64,000 bases of DNA from an uncultured Nitrososphaerota archaeon (lineage in GTDB: Archaea > Thermoproteota > Nitrososphaeria > Nitrososphaerales > CADDZS01), in the NCBI GenBank assembly GCA_963799845.1, contig CAWCYI010000006.1, forward strand, positions 960,001 through 1,024,000, read 5' to 3'. The notes under the pieces were generated by a model. It did no database searches, was not told the origin of the DNA, and was given only the letters and a program-made list of their open reading frames with translations. Position numbers and translations under genes: made by a program. Numbering within the stretch: position 1 is the first letter of the stretch; every line of letters begins with the position of its first letter. Below, piece after piece: positions 1 through 10,282 of the stretch.

Positions 1-912
1 GATGTGCTTCAGGTAGACTCTTTTGACAGCAGAATCCGTCTTGGCTTTCACGGCTCCACTCACTGCGCATGTTAGAGCGTACTTCAATATGACGTCGCCG
101 TGCTTTACGTGTTCGTGGTGGGACTCACGCTCTCCACTGTTGTCAGCACCTGGAACGACTCCGGCATACGAGCAGAGATGTTTCTTTGTGGGGAACCTTG
201 AAGCGTCTCCTATTCTTGCCTTGATGGCTACTGCGGTGAAAGCATTGATGCCAGGGTGACTGAACAGAAGCTGGCAGTCTTCGTCTGAGGCTGCCATCTT
301 TGCAATCTCGGTCTCAACCTCCGTATGCTGGGTTGCATAGAACTTGAGCTCCGAAAGATGCAATGCGAGAGCCAGCCTGTCTTGCTTTGGAAGCTCTATC
401 TCTCCGAGCTTTTGAAGACCTCCGTTACTGAACACGTCAGAGAATTCTGAGAACTCGCTCTGGACCATGTTTCTCTCCAGTAGAGCTTGGATCTGGTTCT
501 TTACTCTCGATATCTTTGCGCCAATCTCTATCTGTTGGGTCACAAGAAAGCGCATGTCTTCTATGTACTGTGAGGGAACGTAGCACCTTCTCAAGTAGCC
601 CAGTGCATCCTCCTTGACGATACGCTCGCAGTCTCTCTTATCGGTTTTCACAGATGCTTTCTTCTCTGGTGGCGCAACCATGTGAATCACGTGCTGGTTT
701 GATGCGAAAGAAGAAATCATTCTCGTGACCGCCTTTCCAGTTGTGCTAGATTCGATGACAAATACAGATTTGTCCGGAATCTTTGCTAGCATCTCAGAGA
801 CTCCTGCCCTGCTCGTCTTGAAGACGAAGGATTGTATGGGTGACTCTTCTCCGTCCGCGAAGACCTGCGTGGTGCAGCTCTTCTTATGTGCGTCTATTCC
901 GACTCTCGTCAT
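1..912 (-). CDS. IS110-family DEDD recombinase/transposase, runs off the window start
   Basis: Manual translation from ATG at 912: MTRVGIDAHKK...FVIESS...VKTDKRD...PGINAFTA...RFPTKKHLCSYAGVVPGADNSG. These are RuvC-like DEDD and Transposase_20 motifs. Absent from the ORF track because there is no stop in the window. Confidence 0.93.
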   Translation of the reverse strand, partial: MTRVGIDAHKKSCTTQVFADGEESPIQSFVFKTSRAGVSEMLAKIPDKSVFVIESSTTGKAVTRMISSFASNQHVIHMVAPPEKKASVKTDKRDCERIVKEDALGYLRRCYVPSQYIEDMRFLVTQQIEIGAKISRVKNQIQALLERNMVQSEFSEFSDVFSNGGLQKLGEIELPKQDRLALALHLSELKFYATQHTEVETEIAKMAASDEDCQLLFSHPGINAFTAVAIKARIGDASRFPTKKHLCSYAGVVPGADNSGERESHHEHVKHGDVILKYALTCAVSGAVKAKTDSAVKRVYLKHI

Positions 913-953
913 TGGTTTCGATTCATACTCCTATTGTTTGACTGGTTGTTTGC

Positions 954-1106
954 GTCATGGATCCCAGACCGACAATCTCCCGTACGTCCATTATGGACAA
1001 GCGGGCCGGTCGTTTCGATCATCGTCAATTGTGACGATGACTGTGCAGCCATGCTGGGGAACATGCACAAGGCACAAGAGATTCGAAGGCTGCGGGGATC
1101 CATGAC
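954..1106 (-). ncRNA. Putative bridge RNA of IS110 element 1
   Basis: 12-bp closing inverted repeat GTCATGGATCCC (954-965) / GGGATCCATGAC (1095-1106). Two internal stems (GCAGCC/GGCTGC and GACCG/CCGGTC) have loops matching the junction at 1160-1171. Confidence 0.7.
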
Positions 1107-1328
1107 CACAACTCCAGCTGTCTCTTGCTGGAGGGGAGAGGCTAATCTAAGATTTTCATGCCCGCTGGGGATTCGCACCTAATTAGGTACCAGTACCAAA
1201 GAATCGTTTTATGGCAAGGAAATAGCCGAAATGGTAAAAATAATATGAGGTTCCACGTGGGGATTTGACTCGGATAACTTAGCTTAGTGAATCGATGTAT
1301 ATTTGTCGTTACTTATCTGAAACCTCAC

Positions 1329-1385
1329 GTGCGGGGGTCCCACATTCCGCGCCCGGAATCTTATCCTTTTGTGATTATTTACTAG
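1329..1385. repeat. REP-like repeat unit GTGCGGGGGTCCCACATT...TTTACTAG (left flank of IS110 element 2)
   Basis: The same GTGCGGGGGTCCCACAT motif recurs at ~2587 and ~8013, each next to a TTTACTAG(TAAA) palindrome. Confidence 0.8.
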
Positions 1386-1433
1386 GTGACATGATCGACA
1401 GAGTTAACGGAAGGTAAAGCCACAGCCAAGCAC

Positions 1434-2414
1434 ATGTACGCAGCTATAGATCTTCATCAAAGAACCGTCCAGCTGAGTACTCAAGGACGAAAGAGGACAG
1501 ATTGCAGGTGAGACGAAAATTGGCAAGGATGCAAGGAGCATACTCGAGTTTCTCGATGGCACTGACGCCAGAGTAGTCATGGAATCGGGCTACAACCATG
1601 AACACATCTACGATCTCCTCAAAGAAGAGGGATACGATGTTAAGGTAGCTCATCCGCTGTTGGTTAAGGCGATCGCCTACGCAAAGGTGAAAAATGACAA
1701 GGTGGACGCAAGGATGCTCGCAGATTTATTGAGACTAGACATGATTCCAGAGTGCTACATTCCAAGGAAAGAGACGAGAGAACTAAGAGACCTCGCAAGG
1801 AGGAGGCACTATTTCGTCTCGACAAGAACCACGTTCAAAAACAAAATCCATGCTGAGCTCAGCAGGAGATGGATTGATTACAGCAAAACAGATCTCTTCA
1901 CGCAGGTCGGAAGAGACCATCTAAAATCCCTTCATATTGCAGCAGTAGATGACTATCTCGACTCGATAGAGTTCCTAGATGCGAAAATAAAGGAGCTTGA
2001 CAGCCAAATCAAGGAACAGGCTCTTCAAGACAAGTACGCAAAACTACTTGTGACGGTGCCTGGAATATCTTACTACGGAGCTCTGCTAATCTCGAGCGAG
2101 ATTGCAGGACATCAATAGATTCCCAGATGCCGAACACTTGTGCTCGTACGCAAAATTAGCTCCTGGAACACACCAATCGGGAGAGACTCAATTCCAGAAA
2201 CCAGATCGAAAAGGAAATCGCATGCTCAACTGGATAATGATCCAGTGCGCACACATCCACGTCCTAAACTGCAATTCATCTATAACCAGGCATTACAACA
2301 AAATCAAGGAGACAAAAGGAGCAAAGATCGCTATCGTCGCAGCGGCGAGAAAGCTCGACGTGCGCAATCTACATGATGCTGAAGGAAGAAAGAGCCTTCA
2401 GGCTGGACGGCTAA
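1434..2414 (+). CDS. IS110-family recombinase/transposase, frameshifted (3 breaks)
   Basis: MYAAIDLHQR / VVMES / VKNDKVDA / VPGISYYGA..SEI / RFPDAEHLCSYAKLAP..HQSG / AIVAAARKL / AIYMMLKEERAF. Joins ORFs 1579..2118 and 2102..2470. Confidence 0.9.
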
Positions 2415-2422
2415 ACCATAGA

Positions 2423-2567
2423 CTGGGCTCGAGAATTTACTGCATCGCCAGGATGCGTTTACTAGGATGAGCCAAAGGCAATAAGCGAAAGCCACAATGT
2501 TCCATTTGGGAACGAATGGGAGTATGCTCGTCCAGCATAGGAATGGATATTAGGTGATAGAGCCCAG
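2423..2567 (+). ncRNA. Putative bridge (seek) RNA of IS110 element 2
   Basis: Closing stem CTGGGCTC/GAGCCCAG. Loop GAATTTACT-[GCATC hairpin]-TTTACTAG matches both target flanks. ATGGGAG (2516-2522) matches the element right end. Confidence 0.8.
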
Positions 2568-2579
2568 CCGACATGGGAG

Positions 2580-2649
2580 TAAATTCGTGCGGGGGTCCCA
2601 CATTGGGCACACGGAATTATCCGTTCTTTGGAATTTACTAGTAAAATTG
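2580..2649. repeat. REP-like repeat unit (right flank of IS110 element 2)
   Basis: TAAATTCGTGCGGGGGTCCCACATT...GGAATTATCC...TTTACTAGTAAAATTG, a tandem homologue of 1329-1385. Confidence 0.8.
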
Positions 2650-2727
2650 TGTGTGACAATCCCATCGACCGACCTTCCCTGGCCCTTATCAATTAGAGCT
2701 GGAAAAGCTAATCATATTCAGACAAAG

Positions 2728-5700
2728 TCACCAACGTATTGGAGTCTGCGAAGGACTCGGCTGAGGTAATCCTAACCGCCTGATGAACGAATCCCATCTT
2801 CGATCCTCCCGCACGGGAGCAAACAACGGTAATAATCTAAGGTCCAAAAGGTAGCTTCCATGCTGCGTAAAAAGGGAGTGATCTTCCCGCGCCTCTTCGA
2901 GAAGACGGAAGCCTTCGTCTTTCTTTCCTAGCGAAAAGTATACCTGCGCTATCTTCATTTTAGAGATATATTCGCCCTTGGAGCTCTCTTCGAGCTCTCT
3001 GAGAATTTTACTAGCTTCCTCTCTTTGACCCACAAACCCTAGTGCAATAGCCAGATCGGCCTTCCATATCGGATCACCCCCAGACATTGTCACCGCCTTT
3101 CGAAATTCACTGATCCCTTCCTCCGTTCTGGAATCACAATAGTACGCCCAGCCAAGAGCGCTGTGATTAGGTGGATATTCAGGATCTACCTTTAGTGCAG
3201 TTTCAAGCTGTTCCACGGCCTCGCCAGGTCTACCAGCGTAAAAAGGAACTGCGGCCAGATTCAAGTTTCCAGGGCGAAGGAGCGGATCAAGTTCGACTGC
3301 CAACTTTATCTGTTCTCGGGCCTCTTCAAATCTTGTAAGAAAACCGAGCAACAGTCCATACCACATATGGGCTTTAGCGTAGCTTGGCTTGAGTTCGAGA
3401 GCGATTTTGTATTCAGCTTCAGATTCCTTCCACTTGCCTTCGTAATCGTTGAATACATCTGCGAGTGTAGTATGCGGCTCAGCCAGCCTTGGATCTATTT
3501 CTATGGATTTTAGCGCGTATTGTTTAGCCTTCGGAAATGAATCTTCCGGTTTCATCCAGGTGCGAGAACCATAAAGTATGTAGCAATCTGCTAGTCCGGA
3601 ATAAGCTAGTGCATATTTGGAGTCCAACTTGGCTGCCTCCTCGAAGTATCTTACCCCTTTATCCGTACTTTCTCTTGTTCTCTCCTCCCAGAAGTAACGT
3701 CCTCTTAGGTAGAGCATGTAGGCTTGTGTGTTTCCAGTTGCCCTCATTTCTAGATCCCTTTTTTCGACTGATAGCAACTGGACCGTCAAAGCCTGGGAGA
3801 CGTTCATGGCAATCTCTTTCTGTACTCCGAAGACGCTATCCAGCTTCCTATCATAGTCCTGGGACCACAGATGTTCATCGCTACGGGTGTCAATCAGTTG
3901 CACAGTTATTCTTAAGTTGTCGGAGTCTTTTCTCACAGTGCCTTCAAGAATACTTCCAACGTGCAGCTCCTCAGAAATTTCTTCGATATTCTTGCTGGTA
4001 GTCTTGTAGCGCATTATGGAAGTCCGAGAGATCACTTTGAGCCCTCGGATCTTGGACAGATTGGATATTATTTCATCAGTCATACCATCAGCAAAATACT
4101 CATCCCCAGAATCCGGACTGATGTTTGCAAATGGCAGGACTGCAACACGGTGAATATCAAGCTGGTCGCCGGGTTTCTTCGAATCCGGTCTGCTCTCTTC
4201 CACGGGGAGCTCTATCTTGTAAACATTTTCTTGGGCTTGGAGCCCAATTTTCTTCATGAACGCGACAAATCTCGGGTCTTTTTTCATGCCACTAAACCAT
4301 GGCCACCAGTTGAGATAGGGAATCGTGTTTGACCTTTCCTGGTAGGCTTTCTCAAGGTAAGTGAACCCTTCATCGATTCTTCCGGCACCGAAGAGAGCAT
4401 AGGCTATTAGCCCACTGTCAACATAAGAGGTGTTGGAAAGCGCAATTAGCTCTTGTACTACTTCACTTGCTTCGTCGTGCTTCCCAGAGAATCCAAGCAA
4501 ACAAGCGAGATGAGCCCTGCAATTTGGATCTTCATGGGATATTTCGACAGACTTGCGAACTGCTCTGATGGCTTCGTCTATCCGTGATGCCATGTAATAT
4601 GCCCAGCCAAGCCAAACATATGCAAAGGCATAATCTTGATTTTCTTCGATGACCTTTTCGAATTGCCTAATGGCCTCGCTGATTTTGCCATTCGCATATA
4701 ATACCTCACCCACGTTAACCCCGATTACACGTGACAGCGGGTCAAGCTCATGAGCACGCGCGATATTCGTGTATGCTTCGTCTAGTCTGCCTTGTGAACG
4801 AAGGATGAGTGATAGCCAGTGGTAAGCTGTCGCGTAGCTGGGATTAAGCTCGATAGCCCGTTTCAACTCTATCTCCCCCTCGTTCCACTTGAAATCATAA
4901 TTTGAGAGCGCTATTCCGAAGGAAGCGTGTGGTTCGGCTAATCGAGGATCCAACGAAATAGCCTGCAACGAAAACTCCTTGACTCGCAGAAACGCTTCTT
5001 TGGGAGCCAGCCATAGATAGTCGGCATAGATGATGTAGCAATCTGCCAGCGCTCCATACGCTAGCCCAAATCTAGCGTCAAGCCCAATCGCTTTTTCGAA
5101 GTATTTTACGGCCTTGTCGACTGCTTCTCTGCTTCTCTCGTTGAGGTAGTATCTTCCCTTCAGGAACAATGTGTAAGCTTCATCACTCTTCGTGGGAAGG
5201 TTATTTTCGATTTCCTTTTTTTCTTTTGAAAAGAGGTTGATCTCAAGAGCGGCAGCTACTCGCTGGGCAATCTCGCTCTGAATAGCGAAAATGTCTTCGA
5301 GCTCTTTGTCGTAGCTTTGATTCCAAAGATGTACGTCACTAATCGAATCAATGAGCTGTGTTGTAATTCTTAATTTGTTGCCCGATTTCCTCACACTCCC
5401 TTCCAGGATTTTTCCCACGTTGAGCTCTTTTCCTATTTCCGTTGCAGTTTTCTTCGAATTTTTGAACTTCATCGCAGAAGTTCTGGAAATTACGATCAGG
5501 TTTGGAATTTTTGACACCGAGGAGATCATTTCCTCGGTCATGCCGTCAGCGAAGTACTCGTCATTGGGATCCTGACTCATGTTCGCGAAGGGGAGGACTG
5601 CGATCCTATTGCTGTCGATTTTTCCCTTTGGCTCTAATCCTCTTTCATCCCAAGGGAGATCGATCTTGTACACCTCAATCGGGAGAATCTACATTCTTGA

Positions 5701-6568
5701 GTAATTTTTCTCCCAAGCTGGTAAATGTCAAATCAATCTTATTTCGCACTTGATCGTAAACCTGTCGCGTCAAACAGACACCACCACTATCTGCAAGAGG
5801 TTCAATCCTGGAAGCTACATTGACTGCATCACCAAAAATGTCCCCACCGTATTCGACGACGTCTCCAAGATGGATCCCAATCCTTAAACTGAACCTTTTA
5901 TCGACGGGCAGAACAATATTGAATTCCCTCACAGCTCTCTGAATATCATACCCACACCTCACGCCATTTAGGGCATCTGGGAACTGTACTAAAAATGCAT
6001 CCCCGATCATTTTCACTATCGTTCCTCCATGCCTTTGGAATATGGGTCGGAGCAGTTTACTGCTTTCTTGAAGTAGAGCAAGTGAAATCGACTCATCTTT
6101 TTGTCCCAGCGCCGTGAAGCCCACCATATCGGTAAACATTATTGTAGCAAGATGACGGTGACCTTGTTCTAAGATCTGTTTTTCCTGGTTCGATACTTCA
6201 TGGACTTGGGGAACTATGGCTGCTTCGATTTCTTGATCTGTGCGCTGCGATTGTATTCTTTTTTGTATCGCAGCTCTGGGATCAGAAATTCTGAACCGCA
6301 TCACTTCACCATCGCGGCCGCGCTCGCCCTCGATGTACCTCATCTCAATCAGACCATTCGTTATGAGATCTTGAAGATCCGTGCCGACCTGTCCTGGTCT
6401 TTTGCCATACAGGGTGTTGGGGACAGATCCAGTCCCCTCCGCGATCTGAACCAGACTCCTCCACCCGCATCGATCCAGCGGGATTCTCAATACCTCGTCA
6501 TCTTTCACATAGGCATCTTTCAGAAATTCAAATAGCCGCTTTGACTTTGAATCTCTGAATTCTTCCAA
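2728..6568 (-). CDS. wHTH-like domain + class III adenylate cyclase + two TolB-like/TPR modules (frameshift near 5675)
   Basis: Cyclase motifs MFTDMVGFT, VKMIGDA, RIGIHLGDV, DIFGDAVNVASRIE. Two copies of AVLPFAN(M/I)S..EYFADGMT..VISRTS, each followed by TPR repeats. ORFs 5675..6568 and 2728..5673 abut out of frame. Confidence 0.9.
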
Positions 6569-6842
6569 ACCGTGTTCTCTTGAAAATCACGTGTAAGGCA
6601 TAAAAAAAGTTAAGCAGAATTATCGACAGAAAAGCCCCCTTTTGATGCCGCTGCTTGAGAGAAGAGACCAGGTCGAGAACATTCTCGAAAAACTGAAGCG
6701 GTATTTCACAAAAGGCAGTTACATTTAGTTGAATTCCACAGGTTTTCGGCACAGAGCAACTCGCTGGGGATCGAATTACTTACTGCGTTGCTGAGTCTGG
6801 ATACGAACAGAGGGGTCCTGGGAGTCAGAGTTGAACGAGTTA

Positions 6843-7966
6843 ACCTGGCCGACATAAATTATTAGACTGAAAGGGCCACAGACCTAGACATTCTCATTTT
6901 TGGCCAACTTCCCTTCCTATCTCAGGTTGTATGTCTCGATTACAGGCACCGAAGGAGATTGTTGAAGAGGCTTATAGAGAGGAGAGGGACGCAAACGTAA
7001 GCAAGAGGATATTCCTCGTTCTGAAGGTCAAGTACGAGGGTGTCCCGGCGTCGCACGTAGCAAGGGAAGTTCACCGGCACAAATCATGGACGACACCGTG
7101 GCTTAGACGTTTCGAGAAAGATGGGCTAGAAGGACTCAAGACGATGGAAAGGAGCGGGAGACCTCCGAAGCTCGATCACAACAAGTTCATTGCGGTGAAG
7201 AGGAAGGTCGTGAAGAACGAATGCGGCTGGACCGTGAAGGAGGTCAGGGAGATGATCCGCAAGGAAGCAGACGTGGCATACACTGAGAGACACATCTACA
7301 GGTTGATGCAGAAGTGGGGAGTGAGAGCAATTGTCCCTGACAAGAGGTTACTTCACAAGGCTTCCCTCGAAGAGAGGCTCGAATTTAAAAAAGGACCGCA
7401 AGACTCCTCAGGAATATCCCGGAAGGCTTCACCGTAGCATCCGAAGACGAATCAATCTTCGTCCAGAACATAGAAACCAAAAGGGTGTGGGCGGTCAAAG
7501 GGATTCGACCGATTCGGATTGTGTCAGGCTCGCACGGCAACACCGTGGTGTTTGGAGCGATCAGCCTGGACGGGACACAAATCTTCAGGCAGTACGAGAA
7601 ATTCAATGGCGAGACATTCCTCGACTACCTGAAGAAGGTGCACAGGAAGTTTGGATCACTCTATCTCTTCCTTGACAAAGCAAGGCAACACCACAAAACC
7701 AGGATCGTAACTGATTATTTGGGTAAGAACAGGAAGACTCTCAGAGTCAGATGGATCCCGACAGCTTCGCCAGAGTTCAACATGATGGAGGAGTGTTGGC
7801 GCGAGGGTGAGAAGGATCTCTCAAGGCTTCCAACCTTTCCGACGTCATTGAAAGAACTGAAATCAATCCTGGCAGAATACTATCGAACGCGAAGGTTTTG
7901 CTCGCATCTTGACATGAAGAAATTCCTTCTGACCAACAGGTGTCTATGAACTTATGTCGGCCAGGT
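6843..7966 (+). mobile_element. IS630-family insertion sequence
   Basis: Terminal inverted repeats ACCTGGCCGACATAA / TTATGTCGGCCAGGT with a duplicated TA at 6841-6842 and 7967-7968. Confidence 0.95.
6931..7949 (+). CDS. IS630 transposase, two ORFs joined by a probable programmed -1 frameshift
   Basis: HTH ORF 6931..7437 (RSGRPPKL) and DDE ORF (SEDES, LFLDKA..H, SPEFNMMEECW). Slippery TTTAAAAAAG at 7384-7393. Confidence 0.92.
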
Positions 7967-7992
7967 TAGTTCGGAATCCCATCGTAATTTGG

Positions 7993-8052
7993 CAATTTTT
8001 ACTAGTAAATCCGTGCGGGGGTCCCACATCTCGCATTCATGATTTACTAGGA
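7993..8052. repeat. REP-like repeat, intact (empty IS110 target)
   Basis: CAATTTTTACTAGTAAATCCGTGCGGGGGTCCCACAT...GATTTACTAGGAAA. Confidence 0.8.
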
Positions 8053-8168
8053 AAACTCATGTACGAATCCCGTACCTCGCAAACCCCTTTACCAACAAAG
8101 TCTAACTTGTATCATCTAAGAATATCCGACGATCGTAACAACAAATCATTGACGGCCTTCGCAACTAA

Positions 8169-10282
8169 TCAGACTGAGTCAGGAAAACCAATTTTTTTCA
8201 GCAAAGCCTGAAACCTGGGATCTGTTTGAAGAGCTTCTAAAGTAAGACGGCTTTTGATCACAGTAATCATACCCTGATGCTGATCATAAGCTCGCTCGAG
8301 CCACTCCATTGCCTTGTCCTTTTCACCTAAACTCAAGTAAACTGAGGCAATCGCTATATCTGACCTGTGACTTTGTTCACTCATTCTGAGCAAGTCGGCG
8401 AGTATGTCTCTAACCTGATCCATTTTTCCAGCTCTTGCGTAAGCATAGGCAAGATCACCCTTTGGCATCGCGTTATCACCAAAGATTTCTATGGCTATTT
8501 TGATTTCAGAAATTCCTTCCTCGATAATTCCCTTCTCAACGTATGCAATACCCAGATTTTGGTGAGCCAGAGGTGAATTAGGATCTAGTTCAATAGCGTT
8601 TCTCAACAATTTTATAGCCTCGTCATAATGGCGCGACCCATTAAGCGCAGTTCCTGCCCAGGTGCAGGTAAAAGCTGACAACGGATCTAATTCCAAAGCA
8701 CGTTTACATTCCAAAACAGATTCCTGAAATCTACTCAAAAACATAAACGCAACTGCGAGGTCTAAATGACCATCCGCAAGGTTGGGATTTAGTTCGAGGG
8801 CTCGCCTGAATTCGATTTCCGCACTTCGAAAATCCCATTTATGCATAAACAGAACGAGCCCGAGTGCAAGATGAGATTGAGGAACGGAATAATCCAATTG
8901 GATTGCTCTTTCGGCAAACCGCTCGGCCTGAGGGTAGACTTCTTTCGACGGAAGAAGTTCGAAAAAGCCAATGTAAGCATAACTTCGGGCAATCTCGGCG
9001 TAGGCTTGCGCGTAATTCGGATCCTTTTGAATTGCCTGCTCGTAATAATCTATAGCTCTTCTGTAGGAATCAAGAACCGTTCGATGCCTGTAAGTACGGC
9101 CCTTCAGGTACAAAGTGTAAGCTTCCAAGTTATCGGTTGGTCTCTTTGCTAACTCCTTGCTTTCCTTCGCTAGAATGGTGATCTGGAGTGAGTCAGCGAC
9201 CTTTTGAGCGATCTCTTTCTGTATTGAAAACACATTCTCGAATTTTCTATCATAATCCTGAGACCACAGATGCTCGTCATTTTCGACATCGATTAGCTGT
9301 GCCGTAATCCGCAGATCGTCTGCCGCCTTCCTGACACTTCCTTCTAGTACCGCACCGACCTTCAATTCCTTCGCGATTTCTGAAAGACTCTTTTTCGTTT
9401 GTTTGTACCTCATGACTGAAGTACGGGAGATGACTTTCAGCCCACTAATTTTAGAAAGTGTCGAAATAAGTTCTTCAGTCATGCCATCGGCGAAGTACTC
9501 ATCGTTCGGGTGGGACTTATATTTGCAAATGGAATGATAGCAATTCGATTTTTGTCCAGAGTCATTGCTTTCGTTGGTTTCGTCGCCGCATTGATTGACA
9601 CTGCTATTACTGGCTTTCCTAGTGAGGGGATCGCGAATAATTCGCTTCGGGATTCGTCAACGGGGAACGCAATTACATCAGATTTAATCTTGATTCCTCT
9701 CATCTTGATTACGTGAAGCTCTCTTCGCCCTTCTTCGGTTTGTCCGAACGATACAACGCCCGCAAAGAGCTGCTCCAATGCCGCAAGCACTCTAGGCTCA
9801 TGCATCCCTTCTTCCAATGTAGCTAGTAAGACTGTGTCATATTTTTTCACTTCAAGAAAGAGTTGATCCAGAAATTTGTAAATTGTGTCGGGTGGGTTCA
9901 ACATCAGAAGTGGGGAACAAACGTCTAGAACGATTCTAGTTTTGCGTTCGCTATTCTTCTTCAAGAGTTCCTTTATGCCGAACGACAGTTTAGTTAGGTC
10001 ATTCCCGTCGTACTTCATCTGTCCTCCTTCAGCGGATATCCAATTAACTAACCCGTTCCCCTTTAATTGGAACCCAAGAGAACTAGCATCTTGGAGTACT
10101 TCTCGGACAGATAATCTCGTCACATACAGACAGAAATCGCCCTGATGAAGTCCTGTTTGGATAAATTTGTAACCGAGAACCTCTTTTCCAATTCCTGTGG
10201 ATCCCGTTACAAGAATGACTGACTTGTTAGGGTATCCATCCCCCAAGAGCTGATCGAGAGAAGCAAGCCCAGTCGAGAACAA
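8169..10282 (-). CDS. RAD55/KaiC-like ATPase fused to a TolB-like/TPR module (frameshift near 9500)
   Basis: STGLASLDQLLGDG..GSTGIGKE..RIVLD..IKMRG (RecA/KaiC fold), then IAIIPFANISP / EYFADGMTEELIS and TPRs. Confidence 0.88.

Follow-up and report, generated by a model that had tools for sequence, protein, structure and literature searches.

RNA-guided recombinases that work with a bridge or seek RNA are being actively investigated for use in genome editing and, to our knowledge, all of the characterised examples are bacterial. The element considered here is archaeal, an IS110-family insertion sequence (IS) at positions 1386-2579 (plus strand) of a 64,000-nucleotide stretch of contig CAWCYI010000006.1 from a Nitrososphaerales archaeon, referred to below as the window. 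Among the described systems, the bridge RNA of IS621 has two internal loops ordered as stem, guide, stem-loop and guide, one loop reading the target and the other the donor with exchange at a core dinucleotide (PMC11208160, PMC11208158), and its target is a repeated extragenic palindrome (PMC11208160); in the portions of these papers available to us, the plan is that proposed for the window element, which likewise has a repeated palindrome as its target. Likewise, the IS1111-type elements ISEc11, ISPa11 and ISKpn4 have in common with the family of the window element a DEDD transposase of 325-342 amino acids, a long non-coding region downstream of the gene and site-specific insertion, and their short subterminal inverted repeats may have a minimal counterpart here (PMC11187229, excerpts). 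In the seekRNA of that type the match to the top strand lies 5' of the match to the bottom strand and the two overlap in the target, an order that the same excerpts describe as the reverse of that in the IS110 type (Siddiquee et al. 2024, PMC11187229).

It is highly likely that the right end of this IS110-family copy encodes a bridge or seek RNA programmed against a repeated palindrome. The comparisons below show where the element ends, which family it belongs to, its preference for one kind of site, and covariation both of guides with flanks and within the stems; from these we infer that the RNA is made, binds the protein and guides recombination. An initial annotation of the window had proposed a 3' RNA directed at a genomic palindrome, and the comparison of copies and relatives upholds it: copies with the same loop lie at the same kind of site, and guides and flanks covary among relatives.

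Insertion site, copies and target guides

The element sits in TTTACT-AG-TAAATTC. At its left junction TTTACT-AG is followed by the element start GTGACATG (1386 onward), and at its right the terminus GACATGGG-AG ends at 2579, with TAAATTC at 2580-2586. The same AG core stands at both junctions of all copies and there are no long terminal inverted repeats. A subterminal pair seen by eye, CATG(A)TCG in the left end (LE) and CGACATG in the right end (RE), each four nucleotides from its terminus, amounts to an inverted repeat of ~7 bp in which one base bulges out, which places it at the very bottom of the 7-17 bp range of the IS1111 group. The non-coding right end measures 165 nt versus 48 nt for the left end, a layout that recurs in relatives. 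Pieces of the broken reading frame match PF01548 (3.4e-17, window 1483-2115) and PF02371 (7.5e-14, window 2102-2467) in Pfam, and the proteins of intact relatives reach 214-218 bits against the model NF033542 ('IS110 family RNA-guided transposase'), for which the cut-off is 140.

A search of the genome (4.6 Mb, 9 contigs) for copies of the window element (copy 1) yielded copies 2 and 3 and a left-end fragment (Table 1), four insertions with common junctions, (T/C/G)TTACT-AG followed by GTGAC on the left and CATGGG-AG followed by TAAA(T/A)(T/A)C on the right. The junctions of the other copies and the fragment read TCTTTTACT-AG with TAAAATC, GTGCTTACT-AG with TAAATAC, and GAGTTACT-AG, and left flank plus core at the copies is TTTACTAG, CTTACTAG or GTTACTAG. 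All copies have the same two loop segments and lie at the same kind of site; mapped genome-wide, as the initial annotation had proposed, identical loops are never found at unrelated sites. Copies 1 and 2 agree at 93.9% of positions in the RNA core and at 83.4% in the open reading frame (ORF).

The site itself is repetitive. The 12-mer TTTACTAGTAAA has 40 exact copies in the genome versus 0.41 expected and 79 sites with up to one mismatch, and the window alone holds 6 such matches versus 0.13 expected. Twenty pairs of the 12-mer, 43-78 nt apart, bracket a hairpin-forming core such as TTCGTGCGGGGGTCCCACATTCCGCACTCGGGA; copy 1 is inserted in a 12-mer common to two tandem units, and the repeat unit also flanks four relatives from other Nitrososphaerales sequences (L007, L016, L018, L040). 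An empty target had been noted near 7998 and indeed stands there (7998-8009), and a second lies closer to the element, at 2634-2645. In form and as an IS110 target, the repeat is like the repeated extragenic palindromes (REP) of bacteria.

The two target guides flank hairpin 1 within the target loop (Table 1). Guide 1 is complementary to the top strand of the core and right flank, AGTAAATTC, and guide 2, having the sense of left flank plus core, pairs with the bottom strand. The motifs listed in the initial annotation (GAATTTACT, both hairpins, TTTACTAG and ATGGGAG) are all present where it placed them. A search of the window for the composite GAATTTACT-N(10-20)-TTTACTAG gave a single match, against none in any of 100 shuffles.

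Whether such matches are coincidental or reflect programming is best judged from the relatives, about 40 of which, from Nitrososphaerales genomes and from soil or peat metagenomes, formed the comparison set. A simple pattern parsed the target loop at 43 loci; the rest, without a right end or off the pattern, are uncounted. For guide 2, each 3' segment was scored against its left flank over the seven bases that precede AG in both, and the mean was 4.96/7 versus 2.81 +/- 0.24 when shuffled (34 rows, 23 unique pairs). For guide 1, the seven bases that precede CU in the 5' segment were scored against the right flank, of which the first seven bases were taken in reverse complement, and the mean was 5.17/7 versus 3.17 +/- 0.25 (39 rows, 35 unique pairs). 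In both tests 0 of 10000 shuffles were as high, a count that overstates significance, the sequences being related and not independent. The real argument is the number of different guide states with matching flanks: there are 18 distinct variants of the 3' segment and 19 of the 5' segment, and the five core-adjacent bases of the 3' segment nearly always match the flank (TTACT, TCTGT, TCAGT, TTGAC, TTAAC, TTAAG, GGAAC, TCTTG, TCGAA, GCACC and others).

Fold of the right end and the donor loop

The structure proposed on an alignment of 35 distinct right ends has four helices, of which the first is a basal stem, the second hairpin 1, the third a stem of three pairs and the fourth hairpin 2. Pairing is kept in 91% of cells, and both partners change in 7 of the 18 pairs. 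None of 500 shuffles attained the covariation score, and sliding the partners by 1-3 columns left 19-55% of cells paired. In the basal stem (helix 1) three of the five pairs change on both sides; four of the five are nearly always intact, with 1 unpaired cell in all, and the outermost is paired in only 9 of 35 rows. Hairpin 1 (helix 2) exchanges GC for AU in 10 of 35 rows at each of two pairs, with a loop that ranges in relatives from 3 to about 40 nt, and hairpin 2 (helix 4) is paired in 100% of cells, columns 125/137 being UA in 23 rows, GC in 8, AU in 3 and CG in 1. The result is a pair of internal loops, both of them lying between a stem and a hairpin, as in the plan of a bridge RNA.

Folding of the single sequence is more equivocal. 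The basal stem (stem A) has a competitor, stem B, formed by GGATGAGC (2465-2472) with GCTCGTCC (2526-2533). The 118-nt core has a z score of -1.45, 18 of 200 shuffles folding as well; its minimum free energy (MFE) structure closes the target loop with stem A, and its centroid contains stem B. A 160-nt stretch reaches -3.31, with an MFE structure that includes a long-range stem, 2423-2430 with 2560-2567. In these models thermodynamic folding alone does not decide the protein-free folded state.

In the donor loop, 33 of 35 rows have a 3' segment identical to the right end plus core, and two states of it occur, ATGGGAG in 20 rows and ATAGGAG in 13. The 5' arm behaves otherwise: GCCAC is present in 35/35 rows, and LE positions 4-5 vary (AC, AA, AT, GG, GA, AG) without change in the RNA. 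What can pair with the left end is the CAC of the arm, with an invariant GTG, plus one base in most relatives; the LE of relatives starts with GTG in 31 of 33 (33 of the 36 listed relatives having their LE on the contig). That the fourth guide is only partial had been noticed from the window alone, correctly, and the alignment extends this to the whole family, in which the arm is invariant and not a decayed guide. As a programmable guide the 5' arm was tried in several registers against the left end and rejected, no covariation being found.

The octamer AAAGCCAC occurs in the same sense in the LE (1416-1423) and in the donor arm (2488-2495), here and in nearly all relatives. AAAGCC is found in the LE of 32 of 33 relatives, 31 times as AAAGCCAC; the terminus of L023 differs. 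Pairing of the donor arm with the bottom strand of this LE twin was considered, and since both copies are invariant the comparison is uninformative; the octamer may serve for binding, or may act as a mimic within the leader of the mRNA.

Taken together, the right end would encode a bridge or seek RNA that is ~110-150 nt long and forms two internal loops. The 5' segment of the target loop, GAAUUUACU, would pair with the top strand of core and right flank and the 3' segment, UUUACUAG, with the bottom strand of left flank and core, so placed that the two overlap on the AG core. In the donor loop, AUGGGAG would read right end plus core, and the fixed 5' arm would touch the left end (GTG..) weakly. 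By homology with IS621 and the IS1111 type, an RNA-bound DEDD/serine recombinase is expected to join the circle junction CATGGG-AG-GTGAC with TTTACT-AG-TAAATTC at AG, the target palindrome being the boundary of a REP-like hairpin unit that is repeated through the genome.

Table 1. Positions of the element's parts, its empty targets and its other copies (window positions, or contig positions where a contig is named)
Feature	Position	Strand	Basis or remark
Left target half TTTACT + core dinucleotide AG	1378-1383 + 1384-1385	+	sequence
Left end (LE), 48 nt, begins GTGACATGATCGAC	1386-1433	+	sequence, relatives
Imperfect short subterminal repeat CATG(A)TCG in LE	1390-1397	+	by eye
Conserved 8-mer AAAGCCAC inside LE	1416-1423	+	LE positions 31-38
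IS110-family transposase gene (DEDD RuvC-like + Transposase_20), ~980 nt	1434-2414	+	Pfam; broken frame
Transposase stop codon	2412-2414	+	
Basal stem (stem A), 5' strand GGCTC	2426-2430	+	covariation; pairs with GAGCC 2469-2473
Target guide 1, GAATTTACT	2433-2441	+	reverse complement of AG+TAAATTC
Hairpin 1, GCATC-gccag-GATGC, between target guides	2442-2456	+	covariation
Target guide 2, TTTACTAG	2458-2465	+	same sense as left flank + core
Basal stem, 3' strand GAGCC	2469-2473	+	or part of competing stem
Donor-loop 5' arm AAAGCCACAAT	2488-2498	+	GCCAC invariant
GCCACAAT	2491-2498	+	partial match to left end
Hairpin 2, U-GTTCC-atttg-GGAAC-G (GTTCC/GGAAC 2499-2513)	2498-2514	+	covariation
3' donor guide ATGGGAG	2516-2522	+	right end + core
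Right-end tail	2523-2579	+	ends GACATGGG-AG
Tail hairpin ATGCT-cgtcc-AGCAT	2524-2538	+	right-end tail
AT-rich box ATATTAGG	2547-2554	+	right-end tail
GAGCCCAG, able to pair with CTGGGCTC at 2423-2430	2560-2567	+	MFE structure
Right target half TAAATTC, continuing into repeat unit CGTGCGGGGGTCCCAC...	2580-2586	+	sequence, repeat family D1
Empty target palindrome TTTACTAGTAAA	2634-2645	.	55 nt downstream of element
Empty repeat unit: TTTACTAGTAAA (7998-8009), 33-nt hairpin core, TTTACTAGGAAA	7998-8054	.	
Copy 2	C6:903708-904898		84% identity to window element
Copy 3, two pieces	C4:1954614-1954935 and C4:1956884-1957752		
Group II intron in copy 3 (L108)	G000:C4:1954936-1956883		RT/maturase (RT, reverse transcriptase) ORF of 398 aa (RVT_1, GIIM)
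Left-end fragment, 110 nt	C1		

Objections and alternative explanations

Against a programmed RNA in this genome stand several observations that deserve to be weighed together. The target is palindromic, and within this genome alone the guides are not assignable to sides; the assignment is fixed because some relatives have non-palindromic targets, for example GCTCTGT-AG-AAACCA with loops UGGUUUCU and UCUGUAG. In a held-out set of 11 new loci with a recognisable right end, found by covariance model, guide 1 agreed with the right flank at 6, 6, 6, 6, 5, 5, 4, 2, 1, 1 and 1 of 7 positions, a mean of 3.9 that is little over the shuffled level of the first set. The low values come from L099 and L097, where hairpin 1 is missing or the register shifted, and from L095 and L102, which carry the tail and flank of another subfamily, and the held-out set supports the guide and flank rule for well-preserved copies only. 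RNAalifold prefers GGAUGAGC with GCUCGUCC, a pairing that covaries too and would dissolve the basal stem of the target loop. Rfam has no family that matches within window 1-10000 at E up to 1, and a run search for the stretch matched four DNA runs and no RNA run. The donor 5' arm AAAGCCAC pairs with 3-4 nt of the LE without covariation, and one of the four expected guides is consequently undecoded; of the claim that the RNA is nearly fully decodable, both target guides and the 3' donor guide stand and the fourth guide does not. Further, all three transposase genes of the genome are frameshifted, a group II intron additionally interrupts copy 3 (its domains 1-4 and 5-6 match Rfam RF02003 and RF00029, both beyond the gathering score), and the system may be inactive in this genome.

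How much of this decay is genuine bears on the first of the alternatives, namely that the copy is an intact and active RNA-guided IS whose frameshifts are merely errors of assembly. Copy 1 carries one extra base at each of three places, window 1475, 2107 and 2356, when set against six aligned relatives, none of which has them. They were checked in contigs of four DNA runs (X1-X4) of one soil study that maybe includes the window's own sample. The extra G at 1475 is missing from the contigs of X1 and X4 and may be an error or a strain difference, which, with a well-kept RNA module and intact relatives elsewhere, gives this explanation some ground. Position 2356 is covered solely by one divergent contig. 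The extra G at 2107, on the other hand, is present and ungapped in short-read contigs of X1, X2 and X3, and for that reason is probably real; it truncates the protein ahead of the Transposase_20 domain, so that at least one frameshift ahead of the C-terminal domain is probably real. The frameshifts had been expected to disappear on polishing, an expectation that holds for 1475 in two runs and fails for 2107 in three. Copies 2 and 3 have a common one-base deletion independent of the insertions in copy 1, on which account the recombinase gene is probably dead in this genome, and the window copy, its transposase gene being frameshifted, is very probably non-autonomous. Large neighbouring genes are open, and the assembly is thus not generally error-ridden. 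An intact and active element is, in sum, improbable.

Two further explanations dispense with the guide RNA. The target-like segments could act as DNA, either as an internal copy of the site or as subterminal repeats bound by protein; they are readable as halves of the target palindrome split by a hairpin, and IS1111-type elements have subterminal repeats and an end recognition that is less well understood. Yet the segments lie in an internal loop between stems with compensatory changes, as befits a single strand that folds rather than sites bound by protein in duplex DNA. Where relatives have non-palindromic targets, there is one segment per strand in the published RNA-guide geometry, and the protein family is experimentally RNA-guided, all of which makes a DNA role very improbable. 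Scarcely credible, finally, is a regulatory or terminator RNA of the transposase mRNA with the flank matches as side effects. Such an RNA would suit a structure that directly follows the stop codon, has hairpins and folds better than shuffles (z -3.31 for the longer stretch), and ISPpu9 has small RNAs downstream of an IS110 transposase with other roles, but it leaves unexplained the joint change of loop and flank in 18-19 variants and the tracking of the right end by the donor segment.

Relatives, neighbouring features and described systems

The N-terminal 205 residues of copy 2 recovered 9 loci in a collection of species genomes, all 9 in metagenome-assembled genomes (MAGs) titled Nitrososphaerales, Nitrososphaeraceae or Nitrosopolaris; together with a partial small-subunit (SSU) rRNA that fits the archaeal model, this agrees with the archaeal origin that had been deduced from the window. 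An alignment of four family proteins led to 76 metagenome loci, and 726 proteins match the family at E up to 1e-10; public records already label such proteins 'IS110 family transposase [Nitrososphaerales archaeon]'. An intact gene in L006 encodes 325 aa, 86-87% identical to the window's copies over the pieces that align, and one in L008 encodes 342 aa. A covariance model of the RNA core located the RNA in 7 of 151 sampled genomes of the order, own genome included, and in 6 of 64 genera. Within the own genome an nhmmer search for the RNA returned three strong matches and one weak, the latter at C4:232948-233066 (minus strand, E 0.029) without an adjoining transposase gene. This weak match and L103 share the donor-loop segment TATAGGTGA, the right end of L103 finishing CATAGGTGAG, and both resemble the junctions of ISHvo9 (CATAG followed by GTGAAT); they may form a more distant RNA subfamily.

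In L095 and L102 (G094:C1, 713-743 kb) the right-end tail and the right flank exactly match those of a different subfamily in the same genome (L106/L107) and disagree with guide 1 of the modules themselves, a sign of possible recombination between elements no more than 30 kb apart. L008, L009 and L010 are three copies on one MAG contig with the target GGCTCTGT-AG-AAACCA; their left flanks are common over the last 10 nt alone, and their right flanks, near-identical for hundreds of bases, continue into a DDE_Tnp_1 transposase gene, so that this subfamily seems to insert 10 bp inside the end of another IS, seemingly like IS4321/IS5075, which insert in Tn21-type ends. L105 (G094:C1, ~738.1-738.5 kb, minus strand) is an element of ~330 bp without a transposase gene, made up of a left end GTGATATGTTCGCC.. 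with AAAGCCAC, a spacer of ~100 nt, the RNA module in full and a right end. The guides it carries fit its flanks, GATTGAC-AG at 5/5 positions and AG-AACCTAT at 6/7, so that it has the look of a derivative that is non-autonomous and self-addressed.

In copies with a probably dead transposase gene, it is the RNA core that is kept best. It is a tentative and rather unlikely proposal that the guide-RNA module has a life of its own, with the AAAGCCAC twin marking either recognition of the LE other than in IS621 or regulation of the mRNA. Were this true, transposase-less elements of the L105 type would be self-addressed mini-elements mobilised in trans by a compatible recombinase, and the twin, ~30 nt inside the LE, would stand for LE recognition or mRNA regulation unlike the IS621 scheme.

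Several features of the surroundings may be recorded. The repeat unit is ~57 or 74 bp long and consists of TTTACTAGTAAA, a hairpin core and TTTACTAGTAAA, as at window 1326-1385, 2580-2645 and 7998-8054, with 20 units genome-wide. Its core has two variants, GTGCGGGGGTCCCAC and GGGGTTCAAATCCCAC, the second with a tRNA T-arm-like motif found 23 times in the genome; as to a tRNA origin of the unit, aragorn reported 9 tRNAs, none of them ending in the motif and one tRNA-Ala loosely alike. The sites cluster at C6 900-1025 kb, at C4 927-935, 1372-1377 and 1952-1973 kb, and at C7 20-25 kb. In the right-end tail, ~20-30 nt before the terminus, lies an AT-rich box, ATATTAGG here and ATAAATAT in short-tailed relatives, which in the circular form could, as pure conjecture, be a TATA-like box reading into the left end. 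A second and different IS110-family transposase gene occupies window 1-912 (minus strand), ~470 nt upstream of the element, with 304 aa shown before it runs off the window; identical scores occur at C4:1233735, C6:927669 and C6:960472, and PF01548 has 13 matches in the genome. An IS630-like element at window 6836-7973, with 32-nt inverted repeats that are 84% complementary and a transposase in two frames (helix-turn-helix (HTH) domains, then DDE_3), adjoins the empty unit at 7998.

Archaeal IS110 recombinases are already known as a group, and bridge RNAs have been mined at scale; a literature search that left supplementary tables outside its scope found no bridge or seek RNA described for a named archaeal element, although archaeal elements may already figure among the target logos and bridge RNA tables of PMC11187229 and PMC11208160. 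The window element thus adds an archaeal example to a known kind of RNA-guided element and leaves the known mechanism unchanged. More broadly, the family provides a natural data set from soil archaea of 18-19 guide variants with matching insertion sites, in which the programmable positions of the loop amount, beside the AG core, to about 5 nt on one side and 5-7 nt on the other, and it extends the targeting of REP-like palindromes by IS110 elements to the Nitrososphaerales, in which we know of no earlier description of REP-like repeats.

The nearest named transposase is that of ISHvo9 from Haloferax volcanii, archaeal and 36% identical over its full length, and there too AG adjoins GTGA at the left junction. 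By eye only, its 3' non-coding region contains no obvious homologous RNA, and as Hvo9 it is credited with poor target-site conservation (PMC11187229, excerpts). The transposases of IS4321/IS5075 are 21-22% identical over 84-98% of the length (E 1e-6 to 9e-6); the matches to IS621 and ISCro4 are weak, at 36-37 bits, that of IS621 being confined to the N-terminal domain.

In layout and guide order the locus follows the IS1111-type seekRNA and not IS621. The analogy to IS621 and REP drawn in the initial annotation therefore survives in part, for the repeated palindrome as target and for the two-loop plan, and gives way over the position of the RNA and the order of the guides: on the published accounts as far as available, the RNA lies at the 3' end in the window element versus the 5' end in IS621, and the guide order is reversed. 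The core is AG on the transposase strand and the donor 5' arm, invariant, is barely complementary to the LE, two further departures from IS621. From the IS1111 type the element differs in its archaeal host, in a very short repeat of ~7 bp with one bulge and in having no Rfam match. We place it in the IS110 family, with an organisation like that of IS1111; that it belongs to the IS1111 group proper is less certain. ISPpu9 and ISPpu10 of Pseudomonas putida, in the parts of the sources available (PMC12288879, 10.64898/2026.03.19.712850), have AG at both ends as the recombination point, insert in REP-type palindromes next to a GC-rich stem-loop and have non-autonomous derivatives that keep the ends and the RNA gene, in all of which they are like the present family, and they differ in being bacterial members of the IS110 group with the bridge RNA upstream; L105, unlike their derivatives as there described, carries the guide RNA module itself. 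Like the window element, IS621, ISPpu9 and ISPpu10 are directed at REP-type targets.

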